This document shows, in pieces, positions 8,705 through 62,001 of a DNA stretch of 64,000 bases (position 1 is the first letter of the stretch; every line of letters begins with the position of its first letter). Source of the stretch: a phage; the sequence record PZ452591.1; one strand, given 5' to 3'. The position numbers and the translations under genes are program-made. The notes beneath the pieces were generated by a model. The model was not told where the DNA came from, ran no database searches, and saw nothing but the letters and a program-made list of their open reading frames with translations.

Positions 8705-9883
8705 TTAAAAGTATTTTTTAAAACTCATCATAACTTTATCATCAACATCATTATCAATCTGTGCAACAAGGTAGGATGACAGTTCTACTTCTTGTGGTGC
8801 GGATTGAACATTATCAGAATTAAGATATTCACGAATCCAAGGATATGGATGTTTAACCGGAGCATCGGTAATTGGGCATGGAAGACCACACTGTTTCATA
8901 CGAGATACAGTTAAGTAATCAATAAAGCTCCACATGCTATTTGTATTTAATCCAGGAACATCGCCATCTTTAAATAAATGAACTGCCCAATCTTTTTCTT
9001 GGCGATTAACTTCCATGAAAATATCAACTGCTTCTTGTTCACACTCTTGAGCAATTTTAACCCATTCATCGCCATCAGTGCCAAGTTGAAGTTGACGAAT
9101 AATATATTGAGTGCCTTTAAGATGAAGCTGCTCATCACGAGCAATGAACTTCATAATCTTGGCATTACCTTCCATGATTTCCATGTTCTTATGGAAGTTA
9201 AAGGTACATGCAAAAGATACATAAAAACGAATAGCTTCTAAGGCATTAATAACGTGCAAACAGAGGTAAAGAGACTTCATTAAAGCACGTTTAGCTTCGG
9301 CTTCTTGTTTAATAGCTCGGTTTAAACGAAAGTCGGCATCAGGAGATTCTTTAGCTAGTTCTACAAATTCTTTAGCATTTTCCCATTCACGGGTTTTAGT
9401 CAGAACATCATCATAATAACGTCCAATTGATTCAGCACGTTTCATAATAGCTTCATCTAATACAATCTCATCAAATACCTTCGATGGATCAGTATAAAGA
9501 TTTCGCATGATATGAGTATATGAACGACTGTGAATAGTTTCACTAAAAGTCCATGTAGCAACCCATGTATCAAGACTTGGGTCTGAAATTAATGACATAA
9601 GTACAGCAGATGGCGCACGACCCTGAATGCTATCCAAAAGTGATTGATACTTCAGGTTGTTAGTAAAAATATTTTGCTGATATTGAGGAAGCTTATTAAA
9701 CTGTGCAGCATCCATCATTAAGTTTACTTCTTCGGGACGCCAGAAAAATGATAAGGACTTCTCTGTAAGTTCTTCAAATACTCGATGCCGTTGAATATCA
9801 TAACGCGCAATACCAAGACCTGAACCAAAAAACATAGGTTCTTTTAAAACATCAACTGGATTTGTATTAAAAACTGTGCTCAT
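8705..9883 (-). CDS. nrdB: ribonucleotide reductase small subunit, 392 aa, uninterrupted
   Basis: ATG at 9881-9883; single continuous ORF with no intron. Confidence 0.92.
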   Translation of the reverse strand: MSTVFNTNPVDVLKEPMFFGSGLGIARYDIQRHRVFEELTEKSLSFFWRPEEVNLMMDAAQFNKLPQYQQNIFTNNLKYQSLLDSIQGRAPSAVLMSLISDPSLDTWVATWTFSETIHSRSYTHIMRNLYTDPSKVFDEIVLDEAIMKRAESIGRYYDDVLTKTREWENAKEFVELAKESPDADFRLNRAIKQEAEAKRALMKSLYLCLHVINALEAIRFYVSFACTFNFHKNMEIMEGNAKIMKFIARDEQLHLKGTQYIIRQLQLGTDGDEWVKIAQECEQEAVDIFMEVNRQEKDWAVHLFKDGDVPGLNTNSMWSFIDYLTVSRMKQCGLPCPITDAPVKHPYPWIREYLNSDNVQSAPQEVELSSYLVAQIDNDVDDKVMMSFKKYF

Positions 9884-9934
9884 AAATTTTCCGCTTAGTT
9901 AATAGTTGGTGACTCGTCCGTGAGTCAAATTATA

Positions 9935-12199
9935 TCATAATTTACAGGATGAACAATCTTCAGCTTTTGGAGTTTCTATTTCATAATCATCAGTACCAGA
10001 ACCATCACGGGTATTATGATAATAGAAATTTTTAATGCCATAATACCATCCGTATAGCATGTCATCAATCATTATTGACATTGGAACCTTTCCTTTTGGA
10101 AAAATCTGCGGGTCATAGTATGTATTCGCTGAAGCTGATTGACATACCCATTTCAGCATAATAGCTACCTGTGTAAGATAAGGTTTATTACCTTTCTTAG
10201 CTAATTTCCATGTATAATCATAGAGGTCTATGTTATGCTCAATATTGGGCACGACTTGATTAAAGGAGCCCTCTTTTGATTCTTTAACAGAGACTGGTCC
10301 ACGTGGAGGCTCGATACCGTTTGTACTGTTAGAAACTTGGGAAGATGACTCACATGGCATAAGTGCTGATAATGTGCTATTACGGATGCCAAAGAGCTTA
10401 AGGTCTTCCCGCAGCGACGACCAGTCACAAACGTATTTTGGAGCTGCGATTTGGTCAATCTTTTTATTGTACCAGTCGATAGGTAATTCGCCTCGAGACC
10501 AACGAGTGTCTGAATAATATTCGCAAGGTCCTTTTTCTTTGGCGAGCTTAATGGATGCTTTAATGAGTCCATACTGTAATCTCTCAAATAGTTCATGTGT
10601 TAAATCGTTAGCATCTTCATAAGAAGCAAAGTTACTTGCCAGCCAAGCTGCATAGTTGGTAACACCTACACCGAGGTTACGACGCTTTTTAGCTTTTTCT
10701 GCTTCAGGAACTGGATATCCTTGGTAATCCAAAAGATTATCAAGAGCACGAACTTGAACTTCTGCCAATTCATTAATTTTATCTTGGTCTTGCCAGTCAA
10801 AATTATCTAGTACGAATGCAGATAACGTGCACAAGCCAATTTCAGCATCGGGGCTATTCACATCATTTGTTGGAATAGCAATTTCACAACATAAGTTACT
10901 CTGACGAATAGGTGCCTTTTCACGAATAAACGGAGTATAGTTATTCGTATTATCAATGAACTGTACATAAATCCTTGCTGTTCCTGAACGTTCAGTCATG
11001 AGCAATTCAAATAGTTCACGGGCTTTAATACGCTTTTTACGAATATTAGGGTCTTTTTCTGCTGCTTCGTATAATTCACGGAAACGGTCTTGGTCTTTAA
11101 AATAAGAATAATAAAGTTCTCCACCCATTTCATGCGGACTGAACAAAGTGATGTAATCGTTCTTTCCGAATCGTTCCATCATCAAATCATTCAGCTGAAC
11201 ACCATAATCCATATGACGAATGCGGTTTTCTTCTACACCTTTGTTATTTTTCAAAACGAGAAGATTTTCAACTTCCAAATGCCAAATAGGATAATAAGCA
11301 GTAGCAGCGCCGCCACGAATTCCACCCTGTGAGCATGATTTAACAGCAGTCTGAAAATGTTTCCAAAAAGGAATAACACCAGTATGGCGTACTTCACCCA
11401 TGCCAATCTTAGAACCTTCGGCGCGAATCATACCAACGTTAATACCAATTCCAGCGCGTTTAGAGATATATTCAACAATTGAAGCAGAAGCCTTATTGAT
11501 AGACTTCAATGAATCTCCTGCCTCAATAACAACACATGAACTAAACTGTCGAGTCGGAGTACGGCAACCAGCCATAATAGGAGTTGGCAGTGAAATCTGT
11601 CGAGTAGATACTGCTTCATAAAAACGAATAACATGTTTTAATCTATCAACAGGTTCATCTTGATGCAATGCCATTCCAATAGTCATAAATGCAAACTGTG
11701 GAGTTTCATAAATTTGACCAGTGGTTTTATCTTTAACTAGATATTTTTCTTTCAATTGCATCGCCCCGGAATAAGTAAATTCCATATCCCGCTCGTGTTT
11801 AATTTTTGATTCTAAAAATGTAATTTCTTCTGCTGAATATTTTGACAATAATTCAGGGTCATATTTACCTTCATTTACACAGTAAGAAATATGGTCAATA
11901 AATGAACGTGGTTCATACTGCCCATAAACATGCTTACGAAGAGCAAACATTAAACAACGTGCAGCTACATATTGATAATCAGGTTCTTCAACCGAAATAG
12001 AATTCGCAGCAGCCTTAATGACAATAGTCTGAATGTCATCAGTTGTCATTCCATCACGGAGATATGATTTAATATTTTCATATAATTCATAAGGATCTAC
12101 TGATGTTCCCTCAGATGCCCAAGATAAAACTTTAATAATTTTTTGTGGGTCAAAGCTCTGAGAAACACCACTACTTTTGATAACATTAATTAATTGCAT
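9935..12199 (-). CDS. nrdA: ribonucleotide reductase large subunit, 754 aa
   Basis: ATG at 12197-12199; [21 protein letters not shown]... matches recalled T4 NrdA. Confidence 0.93.
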   Translation of the reverse strand: MQLINVIKSSGVSQSFDPQKIIKVLSWASEGTSVDPYELYENIKSYLRDGMTTDDIQTIVIKAAANSISVEEPDYQYVAARCLMFALRKHVYGQYEPRSFIDHISYCVNEGKYDPELLSKYSAEEITFLESKIKHERDMEFTYSGAMQLKEKYLVKDKTTGQIYETPQFAFMTIGMALHQDEPVDRLKHVIRFYEAVSTRQISLPTPIMAGCRTPTRQFSSCVVIEAGDSLKSINKASASIVEYISKRAGIGINVGMIRAEGSKIGMGEVRHTGVIPFWKHFQTAVKSCSQGGIRGGAATAYYPIWHLEVENLLVLKNNKGVEENRIRHMDYGVQLNDLMMERFGKNDYITLFSPHEMGGELYYSYFKDQDRFRELYEAAEKDPNIRKKRIKARELFELLMTERSGTARIYVQFIDNTNNYTPFIREKAPIRQSNLCCEIAIPTNDVNSPDAEIGLCTLSAFVLDNFDWQDQDKINELAEVQVRALDNLLDYQGYPVPEAEKAKKRRNLGVGVTNYAAWLASNFASYEDANDLTHELFERLQYGLIKASIKLAKEKGPCEYYSDTRWSRGELPIDWYNKKIDQIAAPKYVCDWSSLREDLKLFGIRNSTLSALMPCESSSQVSNSTNGIEPPRGPVSVKESKEGSFNQVVPNIEHNIDLYDYTWKLAKKGNKPYLTQVAIMLKWVCQSASANTYYDPQIFPKGKVPMSIMIDDMLYGWYYGIKNFYYHNTRDGSGTDDYEIETPKAEDCSSCKL

Positions 12200-12516
12200 A
12201 AGTCCTCAACTTGAAAATCGTCTTTAAACAATCGGTTAACTATATGAGCTATTATATCACCATGACACGGCTTTGGTTTACATGTGCATCCTAGCCTCAT
12301 TCCACGTAAAGGCTCTAAATGTGCTTTAGTTATTTCTCCGGATTTAATTCGACGTATAAAATCTTTTTTGAATAATTCAATGGCAGCCTCCCGGCTGCCA
12401 GCATCTTTACCGACGTAATTTCCCCAAAATGTACCACGGTGAATATTAACATCAAAGTCGGATTTATATTTATTCACTACCCGACATAGACGGCCCGCGC
12501 GGTGATAATTCGGCAT
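12190..12516 (-). CDS. hypothetical protein, 108 aa (nrdA.1 position)
   Basis: ORF track; ATG at 12514-12516. Confidence 0.55.
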
Positions 12517-12733
12517 ATTGTTTTTCCGTTAAAACAGTAATATCGTAGTAACAGTCAGAAGAAGTTTTAACTGTGGAAATTTTATTATCAAAATACTCAC
12601 GAGTCATTTTATGAGTATAATATTTTTTACCATAAATGATAATAGGCTGATTTGGTCCTGGAACTTCTAGCTCACTTGGATTAGGAAGTGTAAAAAGAAC
12701 TACACCAGAAGTATCTTTAAATCGTAAAATCAT
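12470..12733 (-). CDS. hypothetical protein, about 87 aa (nrdA.2 position)
   Basis: in-frame ATG at 12731-12733; track ORF starts at upstream TTG. Confidence 0.5.
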
Positions 12734-12756
12734 ATATCCTCGCAATTAAATTGAAA

Positions 12757-13617
12757 TTACACCGCCATCTTTCCTTTAATTGGCGGGTGAGATACATAGT
12801 TGTTAAGAACAAAATTATGCGGCTTTGCGAATTGACTCAACCAAAATACCTGCGATTCTGTGTCCCATTCATCAAATTCATCTGGAAATTTTAATTGCAA
12901 TTCGCATAAATCCATAGGTTCACGACGCAAAATTTCTTTACATTGTTCTACGTGATTCATATAGATATGAGTATTACCACCAGAAAATATCAAATCTCCA
13001 GGAATAAGATTACACATCTTAGCTACAATATGAACTAACGTAGCATATGATGCAATATTAAATGGAAGACCGAGGAAAACATCTACCGAACGTTGATACC
13101 ACTGCAAATCCAAATAGCCATTACGCACATTAAACTGATAGAACATATGACAAGGCGGTAATGCCATATATTTAAGTTCAGCTGGATTCCATGCAGAAAC
13201 AATTTGACGCCTATCATTTGGCAATTTTTTAATACGATCAACAACTTCTATAATTTGGTCTACACCGCCAAAATCGCGCCATTGTTTTCCATAAATTGGA
13301 CCAAGTTCACCGCTATGGTATCCTAAATCTTTTGCTTGATTTTCGTAATTTTCATCCCAGACTGTTTTGCCTTGAATTAATGAATCATGTTGAATTAATC
13401 GTAAATCATTGACATTTGTGCTTCCCGATAAAAACCATATTAGCTCAGCAATGCAAGCTTTCCAGGCGAGCTTCTTAGTTGTTACTGCAGGAAAACCTTT
13501 AGTTAAATCCCAGCGTAATTTAGTACCGAACAAAGCAATTGTTCCTGTGCCCGTTCGGTCATCGGTTTCATAGCCATTTTCAAAAATGTCTTTAATTAAA
13601 TCTTGGTATTGTTTCAT
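12757..13617 (-). CDS. td: thymidylate synthase, 286 aa, uninterrupted
   Basis: ATG at 13615-13617; continuous 286-aa ORF, no intron or I-TevI-like ORF. Confidence 0.93.
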   Translation of the reverse strand: MKQYQDLIKDIFENGYETDDRTGTGTIALFGTKLRWDLTKGFPAVTTKKLAWKACIAELIWFLSGSTNVNDLRLIQHDSLIQGKTVWDENYENQAKDLGYHSGELGPIYGKQWRDFGGVDQIIEVVDRIKKLPNDRRQIVSAWNPAELKYMALPPCHMFYQFNVRNGYLDLQWYQRSVDVFLGLPFNIASYATLVHIVAKMCNLIPGDLIFSGGNTHIYMNHVEQCKEILRREPMDLCELQLKFPDEFDEWDTESQVFWLSQFAKPHNFVLNNYVSHPPIKGKMAV

Positions 13618-13662: not shown

Positions 13663-14010
13663 TCAATACGGTTTAGCATCAAATTTTCTCTCAATTTCAG
13701 GCGTGAAATATAATTCTTTACCGCGTTTGGAAAAGCGACCAATAATATGATAATTATTCTCATCAAACGTAATATTACCAATATCCATAGCTTTCAACCA
13801 AATATCGATATTTCTATCCAGCTTTATGTCAAAATTCCAATACGGAGAACTATTACCGAAAATACTGCAAGCGGATTCAGTGAAACAGCTACTATAAATC
13901 TTGTCTTTAGGAACTACTAATTGATAGACACCTTTAATAAACTGAGGACCCTGCCACTTTGGCTGTTTCGCGTCTTCTTCTAATAGAATAGGGTAATAAT
14001 TAAAATTCAT
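13663..14010 (-). CDS. hypothetical protein, about 115 aa, between frd and td
   Basis: in-frame ATG at 14008-14010; fills the space between frd stop (14031) and td start (13617). Confidence 0.5.
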   Translation of the reverse strand: MNFNYYPILLEEDAKQPKWQGPQFIKGVYQLVVPKDKIYSSCFTESACSIFGNSSPYWNFDIKLDRNIDIWLKAMDIGNITFDENNYHIIGRFSKRGKELYFTPEIERKFDAKPY

Positions 14011-14030
14011 ATTTTCCGTCACGCGTTATT

Positions 14031-15169: not shown

Positions 15170-15397
15170 TTATTTTTGGATTAAGCCCATATAAAATTTA
15201 GCATCTTCAGGATACATGCCATCACAATACTCATTGGTCATAAAACTAATAAGGTCTTCAAGAGGACCTTGGACCTCAATTTGAATACTAAAGAATTGGG
15301 TATCTTTAATGTAAGCCATACTCAAAGAAGGATAACGATTGCGGATAACTTCGTAAGTGTATTCAAAATCAACAATATCAATATTAACCTTAGCCAT
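15170..15397 (-). CDS. hypothetical protein, about 75 aa, paralog A (frd.x family)
   Basis: ATG at 15395-15397 preceded by GAGGAAAATAA; about 50% identical to the 15880-16107 ORF. Confidence 0.55.
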
Positions 15398-15426
15398 TTT
15401 ATTTTCCTCATGTAGTTGATAGGGTA

Positions 15427-15456
15427 ATAGTATCACACTACTACCCTACTGTAAAC
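15427..15456 (-). promoter_or_regulatory. early promoter (-35 GTTTAC, 18-bp spacer, -10 TACTAT)
   Basis: minus strand GTTTAC at 15451-15456, TACTAT at 15427-15432; lies within an inverted repeat AGGGTA...TACCCT. Confidence 0.45.
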
Positions 15457-15879: not shown

Positions 15880-16107
15880 TTACTGTTCAATAAATCCTGT
15901 GTAAAATTCTACATCTTCAGCATCCATACCGTCGCAGTATTCATTAACCATAAACTGTTTAAGACGATTTAAAGGACCTTCAATAACAACTGAAACATTA
16001 CAATTAGGATCATTTAGTGCGCTTATGATACTAAGTTCAGGATAACGATTACGAATAATTTCTTCAATATATTCAAAATCAACAACATCAATATCAATTT
16101 TAGCCAT
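15880..16107 (-). CDS. hypothetical protein, about 75 aa, paralog B (frd.x family)
   Basis: ATG at 16105-16107 preceded by GAGGAAAATAAT; paralog of 15170-15397. Confidence 0.55.
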
Positions 16108-16150
16108 ATTATTTTCCTCTTTAATCATCAGCAGTATTGCCGATAGTTGT

Positions 16151-16204: not shown

Positions 16205-16230
16205 ATAAAAAAAGGGACCTCTAGGGTCCC
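16205..16230 (-). terminator. intrinsic terminator after gene 32
   Basis: hairpin GGGACC-CUAGA-GGUCCC followed by U-run on minus strand, 24 nt past the gene 32 stop. Confidence 0.6.
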
Positions 16231-16253
16231 CGATTAATTAGTAATATAATCTG

Positions 16254-17159
16254 TTAAAGGTCATTCAAAAGGTCATCCAGGTCCGTGTCATCAGCACTAG
16301 ATGAACTGCCAGAGCTTGAGCTCATAAAATCATCTTCAGTTTTTGTTTTGAAGTCATCAACATTGAATGCATCCAAATCATCAGCAACTTTATCAGCTTT
16401 CTTAGCAGCAGTTGCAGCGGCACCGCCCATCACAGCAGTTCCCATAACTTGACCGAATTTAGTATTCAGTTCTTCAAACGATTTGAATTTATCTTTAGAA
16501 GTCATTTCAGAAAGGTCAACCATTTGTTCGAACAGTTCTTTCTGGAAAGATTCATCATCAATGTTTGGAATCGCAGATTGATTCAGGAATTTAGATTCGT
16601 CGTAGTTACTAAATCCAGAAACCTGTTTAACTTTCAGTACAAAGTTAGCACCTTCCCACGGGCAAGTTACATCAACCGGAGTTTCACCCATTTCGACATC
16701 AACCGCAATCATTGCATTGATTTTATCCCAGATTTTCTTACCGAAACGGTATTTAAATACTTTACCTTCGTTTTCTGGAGCAGCTGGGTCTTTTACAACA
16801 AGAATATTAGCCCAGTAAGAAGTTTTACGTTTAACAAGACTGTACTCTTTATTGTCAGTGTTGTACAGATCATTTTTACTGATGTATTGACATACTGGGC
16901 AAGAATCGTAATCACCATGGGTAGATGAACATGTTTCAATATACCATTTACCATTTTTCTTGAAACCGTGATTTACAAGAATTGCGAATGGTGCTTGTTC
17001 ATCATTTTTAGACGGAAGAAAACGAATTACTGCTTGACCGTTACCCGCATTATCGAGTTTCAGTTTCCACTCGCCTTTATCTTCAGAAGAAAAACCTTTA
17101 TTGCCATTCAGTTTAGCCATTTGTGCAGCAAGTTCAGCAGTAGATTTACGTTTAAACAT
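16254..17159 (-). CDS. 32: single-stranded DNA-binding protein gp32, 301 aa
   Basis: ATG at 17157-17159; matches recalled T4 gp32 including acidic C-terminal tail. Confidence 0.95.
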
Positions 17160-17215
17160 TTTATTTCCTTTTTAATTTAATTAACAGTTGGTGCTATGAC
17201 ACTTTACCTCATAGC
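17160..17215 (-). promoter_or_regulatory. gene 32 translational operator (hairpin/pseudoknot stem plus AU-rich unstructured leader)
   Basis: minus strand GCUAUGAGGUAAAGUGUCAUAGC inverted repeat followed by UUAAUUAAAUUAAAAAGGAAAUAAA-AUG. Confidence 0.6.
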
Positions 17216-17841
17216 TGGCATAATTCGCAATACTCTGGGTCTTCGAGAGGTATCCAACCTGAGTTGAAATACTTTACCATCGATTTAGCAGTTGTATCAG
17301 TTATATTTATATTACCTTTAACTCTTCGCCATCCAGGAGTTTTACCGTACAGATTAGAGGATAATAATAACTCATAATTCTCGTAAGCAATATGAGATAA
17401 TTTCCAAGACTCTATATTAGCTCGTGATGTTTTCCAAGGTCTAAAATCGTCACGGTTCATATAATTAGCCAATCTCATATGCTCTCTAACTTCCGGGTCT
17501 TTGGCTGGATGAGTTTCACCACTCACACCAAATCCACCACCAGCATATACCAGATTAAAATAGTCTGGATTATCTCTGGCATTTACTTCAAGTTGGTATT
17601 TTCGTTCTGCTTCAATAACATCCAAGTCATCATCAATTTGAATTATTTTAACGCTCGGTTTTTGAAGCATTAGCGCATTCAAAAATCTTTTTTGTTTACA
17701 TGAGCTCCAGTATTCCTTTCCGGAAGAGTCATATATTATTCCGTTCTCAAATGAGCAATTTAATTTACTACCGATATAGTAGTATGGCGGAGTCTTATTT
17801 TTGACACGGTCTTCAAATGTAAACCAATATACTATATTCAT
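17209..17841 (-). CDS. GIY-YIG family putative homing endonuclease (seg-like), 210 aa
   Basis: ATG at 17839-17841; N-terminal IVYWFTF...YYYIGS and downstream ERKYQLEVNARDN resemble the GIY-YIG catalytic core. Confidence 0.65.
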   Translation of the reverse strand: MNIVYWFTFEDRVKNKTPPYYYIGSKLNCSFENGIIYDSSGKEYWSSCKQKRFLNALMLQKPSVKIIQIDDDLDVIEAERKYQLEVNARDNPDYFNLVYAGGGFGVSGETHPAKDPEVREHMRLANYMNRDDFRPWKTSRANIESWKLSHIAYENYELLLSSNLYGKTPGWRRVKGNINITDTTAKSMVKYFNSGWIPLEDPEYCELCQL

Positions 17842-17842
17842 A

Positions 17843-18496
17843 TCAATACTTGCAAGATTTCACAGTTTCAATGAAAACACTTTTAGCTTTCTGTGAATCA
17901 ATATTTAAAATTTTTCTATAAGCCTTTAACTTTATAGAATAATTATTCCAGACTAAATTATCAGTCTGTTCATCATGTTTATCAATTATATTTAAAAACG
18001 AATCAAGCAAGATAAACGTCTCAAACGAAATTATGTTCGATTGCAGAAGTTTAAAAATATAACTTGACTGAACCTTTGGATTATATTCAAAGATTTCTTT
18101 AAAAGCAGAAACTTCAACTTTCTTACTAAAATAATAAATGTTGCGAATATCTTCTTCAAACTTAAATTTAATTTGCTTTAAGCGTCCGATATATTCACGA
18201 TAAAACACAAGTGCATCAGCGTCAGAGATGTCACCAATCCAAGCATCTTGGTTAGCAACCAAATTACTTATAAAGATTAAAGCAAGTTCCTTTAATTTAT
18301 ATTTTTCTGATAACTTCTGGAAAAAATACTTATCCCTTCGCTTTTGATAAGCGGCATCAGACACCCGCATGCACCAATTATACTTAATTACATCATACTT
18401 TCCATTCATATGCTGTTTTATCATTAAGTATAATTTATAAACTGATTTACCATCAATGTATCTTTCACCACCAGCAGGCATGCGGAGTTTAATCAT
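17843..18496 (-). CDS. 59: helicase loader gp59, 217 aa
   Basis: ATG at 18494-18496; length and position match T4 gp59. Confidence 0.88.
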   Translation of the reverse strand: MIKLRMPAGGERYIDGKSVYKLYLMIKQHMNGKYDVIKYNWCMRVSDAAYQKRRDKYFFQKLSEKYKLKELALIFISNLVANQDAWIGDISDADALVFYREYIGRLKQIKFKFEEDIRNIYYFSKKVEVSAFKEIFEYNPKVQSSYIFKLLQSNIISFETFILLDSFLNIIDKHDEQTDNLVWNNYSIKLKAYRKILNIDSQKAKSVFIETVKSCKY

Positions 18497-41231: not shown

Positions 41232-43049
41232 CTACTGGCTCATCCATTCTTTACGAAGGTCAGCATTATCTCCCATGAGCATTTCAAAAAGCTCTTTCCA
41301 GTTCTCAGGAAGTTTAACAACATCATATACTGGATTTTGAATCATCTCACGATATTCAGATTTTTCCAAAGAGCCAAGTCCTTTAATATAACGGATGCTA
41401 TGTTTAGGTAGAGCATCTTTAGCACTCTCATATTCAGCGACTGTATAAAACCATTCTTGTTTTTTACCAATCTGTGCGATGATTACAGGAGTTTTGACAA
41501 AGCGAATTCGTCCTTGCTCAAACAGTTCTGGCCAATTACTAAAAAATCCAAGCAGAGAAGGATAAATGCTTCCTAGACCATCATGGTCAGCATCAGTCAT
41601 AATAGCAATATTATGATAATTCAAGTTTTCAGCTTTTTCACCGAGAACTAATCCAGTGATTGCGCAAATATCAAATAGTTCTTTGTTTTTAAGCATATCT
41701 GCATAAGACATACCCCAGCTATTAAGAACTTTACCACGCAATGGATAACCACCGTGAAGTTCTTTATCACGAACATCAATAAGATATCCGATAGCAGAAT
41801 CACCCTCAGTCAAGAAAAGAGTAGTGTCAGCATCTTTACCACAAAGATTCGCTTTGATATGTTTATGAACCTTAGCTTTAGAAGCCTTTTTAGCTGCTTT
41901 AGTTTCTGCTGCTTTTTCTGCCGCCAATTTACGAGCCAAAGCAGCTTCAATAATCGGCATCAGAATTGCTTCATTATTCAAAATAGCACGTGAAATCTTT
42001 TTAGCATCAAGCTGAATATGACTACGGATTTCACCAAATGGAGAAGTCAAACGCTCTTTAGTCTGAGAATCAAATCGCATGTTTTTCATATCACGAACAA
42101 ACATAACGATAGTCAAACATTCTTTGACACGTGCTTTAGTCACATCAATTTTGAACTTACGTTTGATTTGTGGAATAAGGTCTTCACAAATATCATCCAT
42201 AACACAGTCAATGTGATGGCCACCATTCTTAGTATGAATGTTATTAACGTATGTTAATTGACGAAAACCATCCGGTGAACGACCAACTGCAATAGAACAA
42301 TTTTCTTGTTCTTGAACAATAGCATGCTCATCATATTGGCGTGCATATTTCTTAAAATTGCCCTGAACCTTTTTACCATTAAAGGTAAATTGAATATCAG
42401 GATAAACTACTGCAAGTGTCTGGAGACGGTCCAGTGTAATGTCAAGATAAACCTGAGACAGCTCATTAGTTTCAAATGACATAAAATCAGGAATGAAAGT
42501 AACACGAGTTCCTTTCCATTTTCCAGGAATAGTTTCCCATGATTTATTTTCCATGCCATTTGAACAACGAACTACAATATTATTTTGACCATCACCAGTT
42601 TCACCGACAAACATCACAGAAAAAATGTTTGTCAAACTAGAACCAACACCATTCATACCACCGGTGACACGTTCTTTATCATCACCAAAGTTACCACCTG
42701 CTTTTGGAATAGTCCATGCAGCAACAGGACCAGGAATTTCTTCACCGGTAGGTGTTTTGACCATCGCTTGTGGAATACCGCGACCGTTATCTTCAACTGT
42801 TACTTGATTGTTTTTAATAGTAACATTAATTTTATTTGCGAATTTAAACTTAGTACGAATACCTTCATCTACTGAGTTATCGATAATTTCATCAATAAGC
42901 TTAACAAGACCAGGTACATACTGAACACTTTCCCATTTACCAAACAGAAAGCGCTCATGCATTTCATTAGCAGAAGAGCCGATGTACATGCCACTGCGCT
43001 TTTTGATATGTTCAATATCGCTCAGAATTTTAATTTCATTCTTAATCAT
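41232..43049 (-). CDS. 39: topoisomerase II large (ATPase) subunit, contiguous 605 aa (equivalent to T4 gp39 plus gp60)
   Basis: ATG at 43047-43049; one uninterrupted ORF spanning GHKL ATPase and Toprim regions. Confidence 0.9.
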   Translation of the reverse strand: MIKNEIKILSDIEHIKKRSGMYIGSSANEMHERFLFGKWESVQYVPGLVKLIDEIIDNSVDEGIRTKFKFANKINVTIKNNQVTVEDNGRGIPQAMVKTPTGEEIPGPVAAWTIPKAGGNFGDDKERVTGGMNGVGSSLTNIFSVMFVGETGDGQNNIVVRCSNGMENKSWETIPGKWKGTRVTFIPDFMSFETNELSQVYLDITLDRLQTLAVVYPDIQFTFNGKKVQGNFKKYARQYDEHAIVQEQENCSIAVGRSPDGFRQLTYVNNIHTKNGGHHIDCVMDDICEDLIPQIKRKFKIDVTKARVKECLTIVMFVRDMKNMRFDSQTKERLTSPFGEIRSHIQLDAKKISRAILNNEAILMPIIEAALARKLAAEKAAETKAAKKASKAKVHKHIKANLCGKDADTTLFLTEGDSAIGYLIDVRDKELHGGYPLRGKVLNSWGMSYADMLKNKELFDICAITGLVLGEKAENLNYHNIAIMTDADHDGLGSIYPSLLGFFSNWPELFEQGRIRFVKTPVIIAQIGKKQEWFYTVAEYESAKDALPKHSIRYIKGLGSLEKSEYREMIQNPVYDVVKLPENWKELFEMLMGDNADLRKEWMSQ

Positions 43050-43104
43050 CACTTATCCTCGTTTGGTTTCGGGAATATTATACTCCGGTAATCATAAAGC
43101 TAAA

Positions 43105-53924: not shown

Positions 53925-54443
53925 TTAATAGCCTCGATCTTGACGTGCGAAATTTTCGGCATTTTTCAGATAATAAAGTTTAAAGATTTCTTCAGCTGAC
54001 ATTCCAAGAGCAATAAATTTATTCATGAAAAAGTGAAATTGGTCAATCAGTTCAAATTTAATTTCAAGCTGATCTTCGGGAGATAAATCTTGAATTTTCT
54101 TGGATTGCATTTCAGAATAACGTTTCTTCCAAGGTTTCCATACAGCAGAAGCTTCTTTTTCACCATTACTCATACCACCAAGAGAAGTATATAGCTCGCG
54201 AGTTTCGTCTGCGATATAATCGTCTTGGTTTCGCAGCCAAGCAAGAACTTCTCCTGCGGTTTCAAGTGAATCAGGATGACGATTTGTTTCTGGCTTATCA
54301 TTAGCCAAACGAATCTGTAAAGACCGCTGCATATCAAGCATAACCTGCAATGGGTCTTTTTCATCACCGAGAATATCCCGGTATTCATTTTGAGCTTTAT
54401 CAACACCTTCGATCAAATGAGCGCATTCATTAAAGTGAGCCAT
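53925..54443 (-). CDS. 56: dCTPase/dUTPase gp56, 172 aa
   Basis: start set at ATG 54441-54443 (MAHFNECAHLIEGVDKAQNEY...) with AAAGGAAAA Shine-Dalgarno; the track ORF extension begins at GTG and covers the promoter. Confidence 0.85.
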   Translation of the reverse strand: MAHFNECAHLIEGVDKAQNEYRDILGDEKDPLQVMLDMQRSLQIRLANDKPETNRHPDSLETAGEVLAWLRNQDDYIADETRELYTSLGGMSNGEKEASAVWKPWKKRYSEMQSKKIQDLSPEDQLEIKFELIDQFHFFMNKFIALGMSAEEIFKLYYLKNAENFARQDRGY

Positions 54444-54477
54444 TATTTTTCCTTTCAATTCATGGGTTAGTAGATTA

Positions 54478-54502
54478 ATTATACAATAAATATATAAAGC
54501 AA
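54478..54502 (-). promoter_or_regulatory. MotA-dependent middle promoter (MotA box TTGCTTTA, 11 nt, -10 TATAAT)
   Basis: minus strand ...ATTGCTTTATATATTTATTGTATAATTAA... about 35-60 nt upstream of the gene 56 ATG. Confidence 0.5.
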
Positions 54503-54514
54503 TAAGGAGGACAT

Positions 54515-54715
54515 ATGGTACAAAAATTAATGGCACTTGTTGATGCCATAAAAGGTAATAAGAAACGTATAGCTTTTACTATTTCTGCTATGGTAGGAAT
54601 TTTACTCTGGAACTTTATTTTATCACCTGTTGCAATTGCTCATGGTGTTAATATTCCAGTAGTTACTCTTGATACATTCGTAGATTTAGCATTTGCTTTA
54701 GTTGGGTTAATTTAA
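54515..54715 (+). CDS. small hydrophobic ORF, 66 aa, plus strand, in the 56-61 spacer
   Basis: ATG at 54515 with strong AAGGAGG Shine-Dalgarno 4 nt upstream; two predicted transmembrane segments; opposite strand to all neighbours. Confidence 0.3.
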   Translation: MVQKLMALVDAIKGNKKRIAFTISAMVGILLWNFILSPVAIAHGVNIPVVTLDTFVDLAFALVGLI

Positions 54716-58825: not shown

Positions 58826-59170
58826 TTAAAAGAATTTAAATTTTTTCTTTGACCTTTTATTAAATGCATCTTGTAGTTGCATTGTAATACATTTTTCTAC
58901 ATGAGGAGCTAACTCAGCTTTTCTTTCTTGGTCAAGAACAGCAAAGTCCATTACAACCTTTCCATCAACCCAATCCAGTTTTGTTACATACACTATATGT
59001 GTAGAACCATCTTCTAGTTTAATGACAATCTCCTGGATAACATTTTCCATAGCGGATTTAATTATCTTAAGAGACTCATTAAAAAGACGTTCTTTTCTTT
59101 CTTCTTCCCCCTCCGAAGAGGGGGATTCATCGATAATTTCTAGATCTAAATCTAAATCATCTTTATTCAT
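58826..59170 (-). CDS. 40: gp40 head-assembly accessory protein, 114 aa
   Basis: in-frame ATG at 59168-59170; overlaps uvsX stop by 8 nt; track ORF starts at upstream GTG. Confidence 0.7.
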   Translation of the reverse strand: MNKDDLDLDLEIIDESPSSEGEEERKERLFNESLKIIKSAMENVIQEIVIKLEDGSTHIVYVTKLDWVDGKVVMDFAVLDQERKAELAPHVEKCITMQLQDAFNKRSKKKFKFF

Positions 59171-60344
59171 TAAATTCTTCCATATCACTTAACTGTTCAA
59201 GGTCAGTTTCTAAATCAGCTGCTGATTTACTTTTACTTTCTGGAGATTTAAATTTTTCAACCTTTGAGTTAATCAATTCATCAACTTCAGCTTCAACAAT
59301 TTCATTACTATCAATAGCACCTAACTGATAAGCACGTTTAATAGCATCTCGGAATGGTTGATGCTTAAATAAAGGACCCCAGAATGTAGTGCAGTTAGTA
59401 TCTTTTGCACGCCAAGATTTTTCTTCGCGAATCATCTCGCCGGTTTCTTCATCAAGAAATTCACGAGCATACCAGCCATTTTTAGGTTTTACTACAAATC
59501 CTAATTCTAGAGCCATATCTAACAATCCAGAATAAGGATCGATACCACCGTCAAATTTAACATCAATAAAGAATTTACTTTTTTCTTTAACGGTACGAGA
59601 TTTTTCTACATTTAGAACAAATTGATACCCCTGAAGATCAGAACCATCTTTAATCTGACGCTTACCAATAATGAATACAGTATCAGCTGAATACATTACG
59701 CCTGTACCACCTGTCATCACGGTTTTACTAAACATTTCAATGGTTTCAATTGTATGGTTAACCGCAACACATGGAATATTTTTAATGCTAAAATAAGGAG
59801 TAACAATACGGAATAATGACTTCAGTGATTTAGCACGAGTCATATCTGCCACAGATTTTTCATTCAAGGCATCTTCCGTTTCTTTCTTGGAAGCCATATT
59901 ACCAATTGAGTCGATGAATACAATAACCTTTTCACCACGCTCAATAGCTTCAAGCTGATTCACCATATCAATTTTCAGTTGTTCAACTGACTGGATTGGT
60001 GTATGAATTACTCGTTCCGGGTCAACTCCCATGGATCGCAAATAAGCTGGAGTAATACCAAATTCGCTATCATAGAATAGACAAACCGCGTCAGGATATT
60101 TGTTTAAATATGCCGCAACCATAGTCAAAGACATATTTGATTTAAAGTGTTTAGAAGGACCTGCAAAAATGGTTAAACCAGACTGCATACCGCCATCAAT
60201 CGCGCCGGAAATAGCGATATTAAGCATTGGAATTTTTGTACGGATTACATCCTTTTCATTAAAGAATTTAGATGTAGTCAGTTCAGCAGTCATTTTAGAA
60301 GTGGAAGCTTTAATCAAACGGGATTTTAAATCTGCAATAGACAT
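59163..60344 (-). CDS. uvsX: UvsX recombinase (RecA homolog), 393 aa
   Basis: ATG at 60342-60344; Walker A GPSKHFKS; matches recalled T4 UvsX. Confidence 0.93.
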   Translation of the reverse strand: MSIADLKSRLIKASTSKMTAELTTSKFFNEKDVIRTKIPMLNIAISGAIDGGMQSGLTIFAGPSKHFKSNMSLTMVAAYLNKYPDAVCLFYDSEFGITPAYLRSMGVDPERVIHTPIQSVEQLKIDMVNQLEAIERGEKVIVFIDSIGNMASKKETEDALNEKSVADMTRAKSLKSLFRIVTPYFSIKNIPCVAVNHTIETIEMFSKTVMTGGTGVMYSADTVFIIGKRQIKDGSDLQGYQFVLNVEKSRTVKEKSKFFIDVKFDGGIDPYSGLLDMALELGFVVKPKNGWYAREFLDEETGEMIREEKSWRAKDTNCTTFWGPLFKHQPFRDAIKRAYQLGAIDSNEIVEAEVDELINSKVEKFKSPESKSKSAADLETDLEQLSDMEEFNE

Positions 60345-60421
60345 TCATTTTTTCCATAGGCATCATTATATTTTCCTCACTGGTTAAAGATAGAGTAATT
60401 ATAACACAATAAATTTAGGCA

Positions 60422-61264
60422 TTAATCAACTGCTATTGGATGAATAGCATTAAACTTATGAAATGCTTCTGATTTTTCTTTACGCGAAACGCACATGCGA
60501 AGAACCTTTAGTGGTTCATCTTCTTCACCCAACGATTTTCGTTTTTCAATATTCGATGTTTTCCAACGAGCTTGCTCTGGAAACTCTCTATTGATTTGCT
60601 CAAGCGCTCTATTATGTTTAGAATTACTACGAATTGAACTACACCCACCAGGAGCGTGTGATTTTCCAGATACAACTAGATATTTGAACAAGGCCAAATG
60701 CGGATAACCTTGATTAATTAAATTGAGAAATGCATACATATCTTCACATAAATCAATTTTTCCATACCCAATTTGTTCTGTCGTAAGTTTTCCGAGGTCA
60801 TACCATGTATTCGTGAATCCATATGAGTTTTCACGATAATTACCCCAAGATGAAGTAATTTTAAAAATTGGTAGACGAGCATGACCGTGATAATACCCGC
60901 AATCCATAGCATCCTCAACGTATTGAATTAATTCATAGAACTGTTCACGAGTTAATTGATTAATTTTATCTACGCGCCGTTTATCGTCTCTCTTTCGTAT
61001 TGAACTCATACGAATAGTAGTATCATCGTCAATCATCCAGATTCGTTGACCTGCATACATATCAGTAATTGCTTTACGAGTACCGGCAATTCCATTAACA
61101 TCATCAGGAATAGTTACAATTTTAGCTCTAGACCCATAAGCATCATAATAAGCTTTTTCTTCGTGTTCACGTACTACAATATGTGGTTCATAATCAGTCG
61201 GAAACATATCAAGGGCAGAAACTGCCCCTACACGTTGATAGCTTGGAATTACGAATTGAATCAT
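60422..61264 (-). CDS. GT-A-fold glycosyltransferase (DxD motif), about 280 aa, at the uvsX-42 locus; candidate DNA hydroxymethylcytosine glucosyltransferase
   Basis: in-frame ATG at 61262-61264 overlapping gene 42 stop as ATGA; WMIDDDTT motif; occupies the T4 beta-gt position but is shorter. Confidence 0.6.
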   Translation of the reverse strand: MIQFVIPSYQRVGAVSALDMFPTDYEPHIVVREHEEKAYYDAYGSRAKIVTIPDDVNGIAGTRKAITDMYAGQRIWMIDDDTTIRMSSIRKRDDKRRVDKINQLTREQFYELIQYVEDAMDCGYYHGHARLPIFKITSSWGNYRENSYGFTNTWYDLGKLTTEQIGYGKIDLCEDMYAFLNLINQGYPHLALFKYLVVSGKSHAPGGCSSIRSNSKHNRALEQINREFPEQARWKTSNIEKRKSLGEEDEPLKVLRMCVSRKEKSEAFHKFNAIHPIAVD

Positions 61265-62001
61265 TTCCACTCACCGTTATAATCTTTTTTCACAATATGA
61301 GTTTCGCCAGTATTCCACCAATGATCAACCAAGTAAAAATGACGAGAATATACATGAAGACTTCCAACATTCCATATAATAGAACCTGCTTTATACTGAC
61401 GAGTTGAATCGCCTGCATTCAAATCAGATACTAATTTATCTAATACGTATTTTTGCCATGCATAATCATTACGGAATCCGAAGACCACGTCATTTGAGCG
61501 CATGTTAACAACCGCATTGATTTTCTTGTCACGAATTAAGTATTGTACTGTATTCGTACACATGAAATCTGACATACCATCTTTATTGTAGTCAAATTGC
61601 ATAGATGGACGAGTATAAATCATGATACCACGTCGAGAATCAGGATTTTGACCAAGTTCAGCTAAACACATATCATACTGGGCATAGTTATCTTCTGACC
61701 AGATAGCCCAACCATAATTCGAGTTAATTTCACCTTTAGAAGATGCTACTTGTTGCCAAATCTTCGGTGTTTCACCCGGAATATCTTTAACGAACAAGCT
61801 CTTAGATTTATACCATTCAAGTTCACGCTGAATGTATTCATCATTAAGAGCGCCAAAAATAAACGGTTCATCTGCTACAAATGATGCGCCAATAATTTCA
61901 ATAGTTTTAACGCCAGTTTTATCAACTACGAAATCTTTTTCCTTTAATGCAAGCCCCAAATGAAGACGGATTTCTTCAACTGTCATAGAGTCACTAATCA
62001 T
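61261..62001 (-). CDS. 42: dCMP hydroxymethylase gp42, 246 aa
   Basis: ATG at 61999-62001; thymidylate-synthase-like fold; matches recalled T4 gp42. Confidence 0.93.
   Translation of the reverse strand: MISDSMTVEEIRLHLGLALKEKDFVVDKTGVKTIEIIGASFVADEPFIFGALNDEYIQRELEWYKSKSLFVKDIPGETPKIWQQVASSKGEINSNYGWAIWSEDNYAQYDMCLAELGQNPDSRRGIMIYTRPSMQFDYNKDGMSDFMCTNTVQYLIRDKKINAVVNMRSNDVVFGFRNDYAWQKYVLDKLVSDLNAGDSTRQYKAGSIIWNVGSLHVYSRHFYLVDHWWNTGETHIVKKDYNGEWK

Follow-up and report, generated by a model that had tools for sequence, protein, structure and literature searches.

We analysed a 64,000-nucleotide (nt) stretch of phage DNA (sequence record PZ452591.1; hereafter called the window), in which an open reading frame (ORF) that encodes a 210-amino-acid (aa) protein lies on the minus strand between gene 59, encoding the helicase loader, and gene 32, encoding the single-stranded DNA-binding protein. 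The initial annotation had placed a free-standing GIY-YIG endonuclease gene at this locus, and the position of the ORF between the two genes was borne out by the ORF list and by the Pfam matches of the flanking gene products (Table 1). The TGA stop codon of gene 59 (17845-17843) precedes the ATG of the ORF by 1 nt, and there is no Shine-Dalgarno sequence between them. The ORF occupies the interval from the gene 59 stop codon to the gene 32 operator; that is, it is intergenic and lies outside any intron or intein.

Table 1 Features of the segG locus and other regions of the window referred to in the text
Feature	Position in the window	Strand	Basis
segG coding sequence, free-standing homing endonuclease, 210 aa, ATG...TGA	17209..17841	minus	ORF list, T4 SegG identity, PHROG
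Gene 59 (helicase loader)	17843..18496	minus	PF08993/PF08994 (T4_Gp59_N, T4_Gp59_C), E ~1e-53
Gene 32 (single-stranded DNA-binding protein), reported SegG target	16254..17159	minus	PF08804, E 5e-67
Intrinsic terminator after gene 32	16213..16231	minus	Terminator scan: 7-bp stem (5 GC pairs) and T run
N-terminal GIY-YIG-type nuclease domain, aa 1-102 (IVY3-5, YIG22-24, K26, Y44, S47, E79, N96)	17536..17841	minus	
Flexible linker, aa 103-108, GGFGVS region	17518..17535	minus	Sole model segment with a predicted local distance difference test (pLDDT) value <50
Helical domain at the C-terminus, aa 109-210, presumed module for DNA binding / target recognition	17212..17517	minus	
MotA-box-like TTGCTTA inside segG, candidate gene 32 middle promoter	17384..17390	minus	Sequence reading
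T4 late-promoter core TATAAATA inside segG, 145 nt upstream of gene 32 ATG	17304..17311	minus	
GAAUUA, candidate RNase E site, segG codons 206-207	17221..17226	minus	Sequence identical to T4
Gene 32 translational-operator pseudoknot, 28 nt	17193..17220	minus	Motif parse in 10 phages and covariation
Unstructured A/U-rich operator part (UUAAA/UAAA repeats) with Shine-Dalgarno AGGA	17160..17192	minus	Alignment to T4 and 9 phages; anatomy from PMC535899
Regions of the missing T4 homing endonuclease genes	8705-13617, 41232-43052, 53925-54536, 59163-61270		

The encoded protein was identical to T4 SegG at 209 of 210 positions, and the sole difference, V157E, falls in a variable column of the homolog alignment. 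When an 851-nt query across the ORF was used, 499 phage records were matched, with identities of 99.8% to Shigella phage vb_GEC_SH_GT and 99.0% to T4; the annotation beneath the nucleotide match was 'segG: homing endonuclease', and the DNA identity to annotated segG or homing endonuclease genes was 99-99.8%. In PHROGs, the whole protein was covered by phrog_7504 ('homing endonuclease', E 2e-132). The T4T record has the order 59 - segG - 32 and describes segG as 'site-specific DNA endonuclease; GIY-YIG family'. The initial annotation had named segG as the gene at this site in T4 and had suggested an alignment to T4 SegG as a check, and both the gene order and the near-complete identity bear this out. 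T4 SegG (formerly ORF 32.1; Liu et al. 2003 J Mol Biol 334:13, cited in PMC2988022) shares with the ORF the position between genes 59 and 32, the 1-nt junction with gene 59, the overlap with the gene 32 pseudoknot and the embedded late-promoter core. It is listed in the review of Edgell et al. (PMC2988022) as a free-standing, active ('Yes') GIY-YIG enzyme encoded between genes 32 and 59 and targeting gene 32. We regard it as almost certain that the ORF is the segG gene of a T4-like (Tequatrovirus) phage, which encodes a free-standing ('intronless') homing endonuclease of the GIY-YIG type and operates by the mechanism proposed below. Both the gene and the mechanism are already known, and a textbook selfish gene has been re-identified here. 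This identity explains the appearance of the interval between segG and the gene 32 operator and otherwise has little consequence for the window.

The 3' end of segG had been said to overlap the gene 32 translational operator, and parsing of the pseudoknot placed this overlap at 12 nt. The last 12 nt of segG (17209-17220), UGC CAG CUA UGA, comprise three sense codons and the stop codon and at the same time form the 5' strand of stem 1 (S1), loop 1 (L1) and the 5' strand of stem 2 (S2). In S1, UGCC (17220-17217) pairs with GGUA (17208-17205), and L1 is a single A; in S2, GCUAUGA (17215-17209) pairs with UCAUAGC (17199-17193), and loop 2 (L2) is AAGUG. The overlap agrees with Borjac-Natour et al. 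(PMC535899), who report that in T4 the gene 32 pseudoknot shares its 5' part with the segG reading frame, and the T4 autoregulatory mRNA pseudoknot is identical in sequence to that of the window, with nothing differing within it. Two distant phages have the same architecture with other sequences (GUCC-A-GUUGCAA-GGAC-CCAUG-UUGCAAC and ACCU-A-GUUAUCA-AGGU-AAACG-UGAUAAC). Across four sequence types, all 44 cells were paired (100%), and 7 of the 11 pairs were changed on both sides; the covariation score was 0.864 against 0.30 for shuffled sequences, and none of 500 shuffles reached 0.864. Slid controls paired at only 27-52%, a contrast that is inflated by the structure having been read by eye from the same sequences, while the compensatory changes are still clear. 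An H-type pseudoknot architecture is thus conserved by covariation across the four sequence types. No Rfam family for the gene 32 pseudoknot was found at gathering or E<=1 thresholds.

Downstream of the pseudoknot, the A/U-rich part of the operator (17160-17192) is 6 nt shorter in the window than in T4, with one UUAAA-type repeat unit fewer. The short form is common to SH-2 and all five segG-less phages examined, and extra units are found in T4 and HP3 (one each) and in ES26 (two). The A/U tract of the operator is a repeat-length polymorphism in a regulatory RNA.

A 1651-nt query matched 690 phage records, 141 of which carry the segG ORF. Among the segG-less matches listed, 19 of 30 consisted of two segments in which genes 59 and 32 are directly adjacent, and more distant segG-less records matched gene 32 only. 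In phage Lutter, which lacks segG, a 36-nt spacer, TTGCTTATTATAAATAGATTATAATTATCTCACTGA, comes after the stop codon of gene 59, and CCAGCTATGAGG follows it. In the window, the 633-nt ORF replaces this spacer, and homology resumes exactly at CCAGCTATGAGG, which makes a clean empty site.

We compared five genomes with segG (the window, T4, HP3, SH-2 and ES26) and five without it (AV119, WilhelmHis, JK23, ECO07P5 and Lutter) for alleles linked to the gene. On the gene 59 side, only the stop codon tracked segG, being TGA in 4/5 phages with segG and TAA in 5/5 without it. On the gene 32 side, the pseudoknot variant was perfectly linked to segG: the UGCC/GGUA type was present in all five carriers, and a UGACC/GGUCA type with a 7-nt L2 in all five segG-less phages. 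Further into gene 32, nt 52-63 (17097-17108; including a 3-nt indel) and nt 243 (16917) tracked segG in four of the five carriers, and past nt 243 the variation was mosaic without linkage to segG. This asymmetry is expected if the break is introduced within gene 32 and co-conversion covers the stretch from there back to the cassette. As judged from these alignments, the linked alleles reach into gene 32 only, in keeping with co-conversion during homing. Population-level linkage in only 10 genomes, rather than a cross, is a point that tells against this interpretation. The probable co-conversion tract is marked by the alleles of gene 32 that are linked to segG (at nt 52-63 and 243), and this is the place to seek the cut site and immunity polymorphisms; a search of the literature for the cut position of SegG found no paper stating one. 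As a separate observation, SH-2 (L016) has segG and the T4-type pseudoknot, yet it carries the segG-less type of alleles at nt 52-63 and 243 of gene 32 and TAA as the gene 59 stop codon. SH-2 therefore seems to be a recombinant in which co-conversion covered only a very short tract.

Based on the anatomy of the locus and on the published work, we propose that segG spreads as follows. The gene would be transcribed within the 33/59 polycistronic message, which is consistent with the literature, and its translation is probably low-level and coupled to the gene 59 stop codon, since the spacer is 1 nt long and a Shine-Dalgarno sequence is missing. The protein would consist of an N-terminal GIY-YIG nuclease (aa 1-102, by predicted fold), a linker and a helical domain (aa 109-210) that presumably binds DNA. 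In a mixed infection, it would make a double-strand break inside gene 32 of a segG-less relative, some hundreds of bp from the insertion site. This cleavage step is taken from the literature on T4 SegG and carried over by analogy to the V157E allele of the window. The break would then be resected and repaired from the segG-carrying genome, by which segG would be copied, and the 5' region of gene 32 and its operator would be co-converted in the repair, so that the gene 32 marker of the rival would be excluded. According to the review, free-standing enzymes cleave at sites hundreds to thousands of bp away from the gene that encodes them (PMC2988022), and SegG was mobile in T4 x T2 crosses and excluded T2 gene 32; T2 gene 32 was reduced to 1-2% of the progeny, and this exclusion was linked to SegG (PMC2330249, PMC2988022). 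For these crosses, cleavage of the allele without the endonuclease and super-Mendelian inheritance of segG have been reported.

The same reports bear on a different view of what selection acts on, namely that the main selected role of segG is competition between phages, in which gene 32 of a co-infecting rival is destroyed or converted (marker exclusion) to the benefit of the carrier genome, rather than a spread of the cassette that is selfish and nothing more. SegG targets a replication gene that is essential, published work ties it to the exclusion of T2 gene 32, and SegG-family genes occupy the 59/32 site in several T4-like lineages. This role would operate through the same molecular mechanism, with selection acting at another level, and the present results do not tell the two views apart; the absence of segG from most close relatives argues against a strong general benefit. 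We consider competition rather unlikely to be the main selected role.

The motifs inside segG bear on why the cassette is retained. The late-promoter core TATAAATA occurs six times in the 64 kb, and another occurrence precedes the late gene 34. Both this core and the MotA-box-like TTGCTTA are also present in the 36-nt spacer of the empty site, where TTGCTTA directly follows gene 59. Their placement, as far as can be read from the motifs, fits the published displacement of the gene 32 promoters into the cassette: segG has been described as a promoterless cassette with the middle and late promoters of gene 32 inside, an arrangement that favours retention (PMC2988022). A scan for sigma-70 promoters gave 10 where 10.4 would be expected by chance and was left unused. 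The GAAUUA near the end of segG is a candidate for the '-71' RNase E site of T4. Transcripts of segG and gene 32 are processed by RNase E (PMC2988022).

As the review argues, the cassette would have replaced the spacer of ca. 36 nt between genes 59 and 32 that held the gene 32 promoters, and these promoters would now lie inside segG. The reading of the ORF into the first 12 nt of the operator pseudoknot may add to its retention. Since the promoters and part of the pseudoknot lie in the cassette, deletion of segG would damage the expression of an essential gene.

Over the span covered by the window, T4 carries I-TevIII, mobE, I-TevI, segG, mobA, segF and segA, and the window has segG alone of the seven. 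The td and nrdB introns of T4 are absent, and td (286 aa) and nrdB are uninterrupted; the nrdA-nrdB gap is 51 nt long and lacks mobE; gene 39 is unsplit (606 aa), without mobA and the gene 60 split; and there is no inserted ORF in the window between soc and 56 (segF) or between uvsX and beta-gt (segA). An Rfam scan of the whole window gave no intron, 14 homing endonucleases of the T4 type matched the segG ORF only when compared with the window by tblastn, and none of ten non-backbone ORFs matched an endonuclease PHROG. The initial statement that the ORF is the only clear mobile-element-like gene in the window is supported as far as these searches reach. Shigella phage vb_GEC_SH_GT, despite the 99.8% identity in segG, was dropped as an annotation proxy for the whole window because it carries an nrdB intron endonuclease, a homing endonuclease gene between nrdA and nrdB and an HNH gene between soc and 56, all absent here. 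The presence of segG while the other six T4 genes are absent fits the published idea that promoter capture hinders loss.

The same facts could be taken to mean that segG is a domesticated or decaying remnant, kept for the gene 32 promoters and its part of the pseudoknot, whose protein is no longer a mobile endonuclease in this phage. Of the seven genes it is the only one present here, its ORF contains a late-promoter core and a MotA-like box and shares its end with the pseudoknot, and the review holds that embedded promoters favour retention (PMC2988022). The ORF is intact, however, and differs from the biochemically active T4 enzyme by a single substitution at a variable column, with all the family-invariant residues kept; moreover, retention by promoter capture and ongoing mobility are not mutually exclusive. 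Decay or domestication therefore appears improbable, and an intact homing endonuclease gene is preferred.

The assignment of the protein to the GIY-YIG superfamily was examined by profile and fold searches, and several of the results weigh against it. In a Pfam scan, no family, including PF01541 and PF19835, was matched at E<=1, and in an NCBIfam scan none was matched at E<=10. Searches of the PDB sequences gave nothing relevant with the single protein (phmmer) and no match with a profile of 25 homologs. In a Foldseek search of the PDB, the top-ranked structure was I-TevI at a non-significant E of 0.87, and hhalign with a shallow family profile gave a probability of only 4.5% (E 0.009). In addition, the GIY-to-YIG spacing of 16 residues in SegG is longer than that of I-TevI, and no conserved Arg equivalent to R27 of I-TevI was found across 117 family members. 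A plain GIY-YIG profile search had been put forward as a check on the initial annotation, with a missing match counting as refutation, and no significant match was indeed obtained.

Control scans under the same conditions showed how the negative Pfam result is to be read. I-TevI and SegA-E matched PF01541 and/or PF19835, and T4 SegF (L005 15592-16266), an experimentally characterised GIY-YIG enzyme, had no match at E<=0.01. Since SegF also fails while I-TevI and SegA-E are matched, the failure of the profile search with SegG reflects the coverage of the models. The lack of a match to a curated model is a property of the models and not a defining biological feature. Of the 25 homologs, one matched PF19835 (SegE_GIY-YIG) with an E of 0.035, and among 117 relatives five did so, the best with an E of 3.3e-4.

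For a deeper comparison, a profile of the N-domain was searched against 1.84 billion representative proteins, which gave 283 clusters at E<=0.001, and 117 of these were aligned. When this alignment was compared by hhalign with the N-domains of T4 SegA-F and I-TevI, a probability of 95.1% (E 3.4e-8) was obtained over 89 columns; hhalign became decisive only after the large profile search had added diverse relatives. The comparison with other Seg proteins that had been suggested at the outset thus gave N-domain homology. The predicted structure of the N-domain has the alpha/beta fold of GIY-YIG domains, and the fold matches in BFVD include Gp32.1, SegG, Seg-like and GIY-YIG endonucleases. From the predicted fold and the profile-profile alignment, the N-domain of SegG is placed in the GIY-YIG superfamily, and together with the identity to T4 SegG and the literature this placement upholds the initial reading of the ORF as a free-standing GIY-YIG endonuclease gene. 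These results also imply that Pfam and NCBIfam miss the SegG/SegF type of GIY-YIG domain, so that at least two of seven T4 Seg proteins are overlooked. Taken at face value, a naive profile check leads to a wrong rejection of segG; a deep family profile or a fold comparison is needed.

The strings IVYWFTF, YYYIGS and ERKYQLEVNARDN, quoted initially as GIY-YIG-like motifs, were all found in the ORF. In the structure model, strand 3-8 carries I3-V4-Y5, and strand 21-26 carries Y22-I23-G24. Y5, Y22, G24 and N96 were invariant across the 117 sequences, V4, P19, I23, S25, K26, Y44, S47 and E79 were conserved in at least 90% of them, and SegG of this phage retains all the family-invariant residues. 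In the hhalign pairing, IVY3-5 aligns with GIY, YIG22-24 with YVG, and N96 with N90 of I-TevI; the column of E79 pairs with the conserved Glu column of SegA-F, with the I-TevI row (E75) one residue out of register. The proposed conservation of a Glu and an Asn therefore stood (E79 and N96), but the Asn residue had been misplaced: N87 and N91 of VNARDN vary among the homologs, and the conserved residue is N96 in DYFNL. R52 and then R12 were considered as equivalents of the catalytic Arg and were dropped because neither is conserved in the wider family. The segment of I-TevI that holds R27 has no counterpart in SegG or in SegA-F and is an insertion relative to them. K26, which is near-invariant, pairs with a conserved His of SegA-F and may, to judge from the alignment, substitute for the canonical Arg.

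I-TevI (catalytic domain, PDB 1LN0/1MK0) is the archetype of the GIY-YIG homing endonucleases; its gene lies in an intron, and it cleaves DNA no further than ~25 bp from the site of insertion, whereas for the free-standing SegG cleavage at a distance has been reported. The two are only ~15-17% identical; SegG lacks the R27 helix, and its YIG strand is flanked by two insertions, a helix (aa 10-15) and a beta-hairpin (aa 30-37). With T4 SegA-SegF, SegG shares the intergenic, intronless homing lifestyle and the N-domain family seen by profile-profile comparison. In the alignment, SegA-SegF and SegG all lack the R27 helix, and each has a conserved basic residue at the second position after the Gly of YIG (His in SegA-F, Lys26 in SegG). 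SegG differs from SegA-F in its longer GIY-YIG spacer and its C-terminal domain, and SegA-E are matched by PF01541/PF19835, unlike SegG and SegF. NUMOD3 motifs, which speak for a homing-endonuclease architecture, were present in 79 of the 117 relatives, and no zinc finger, NUMOD3 or I-TevI-type helix-turn-helix was detectable in SegG itself. That the motif resemblance is coincidental and the N-domain belongs to some other DNA-binding or nuclease protein, as the missing matches to PF01541/PF19835, NCBIfam and PDB sequences, the missing canonical Arg and the unusual spacing might suggest, is scarcely credible in view of the deep profile-profile alignment and the predicted fold.

Homologs occupy the 59/32 site in other T4-like phages as well (P0004, 59% identity; P0015, 38% identity; and P0014), and P0014 has the N-domain in common and a different, Cys/His-finger C-terminus. 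P0014 is encoded on a metagenomic T4-like contig (L021 3001-3670), where its ORF continues across the Shine-Dalgarno region and A/U-rich sequence resembling the operator, to stop 3 nt short of the ATG of gene 32. No recognisable pseudoknot was seen by inspection of the gene 32 initiation region of L021. A contig with a near-identical backbone, L020, encodes a SegG-like C-terminus and has an intact pseudoknot downstream of the stop codon. In L020 (3651-3678), as in L019 (3660-3687), the architecture of the pseudoknot is conserved while its sequence is not, and the whole element is downstream of the stop codon of the endonuclease gene, in contrast to T4 and the window.

It is conceivable, and we offer it tentatively, that the SegG-type domain is a distinct, unmodelled GIY-YIG branch (283 clusters, no canonical Arg, Lys after YIGS) that colonised the 59/32 junction in several T4-like lineages, swapped its C-terminal module and displaced the pseudoknot of L021. 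If this were true, homing endonucleases would actively remodel an essential RNA regulatory element and not merely adjoin it. What such a branch would add to the known gene is a large group missed by the curated GIY-YIG models, with swapped DNA-binding domains at the 59/32 junction.

Two further differences from T4 were seen near the locus. An ORF of 119 aa with a GTG start (13663-14022, minus strand; phrog_1928, unknown function) fills ~410 nt between frd and td, which overlap by 4 nt in T4; this ORF was not recognisable as an endonuclease. Between gene 32 and frd, there are two small paralogous ORFs of 88 and 82 aa (15170-15436 and 15880-16128, minus strand) with similar, T4 frd.3-like N-termini, MAK(V/I)(N/D)IDIVDFEY...IRNRYP, where T4 has one copy.
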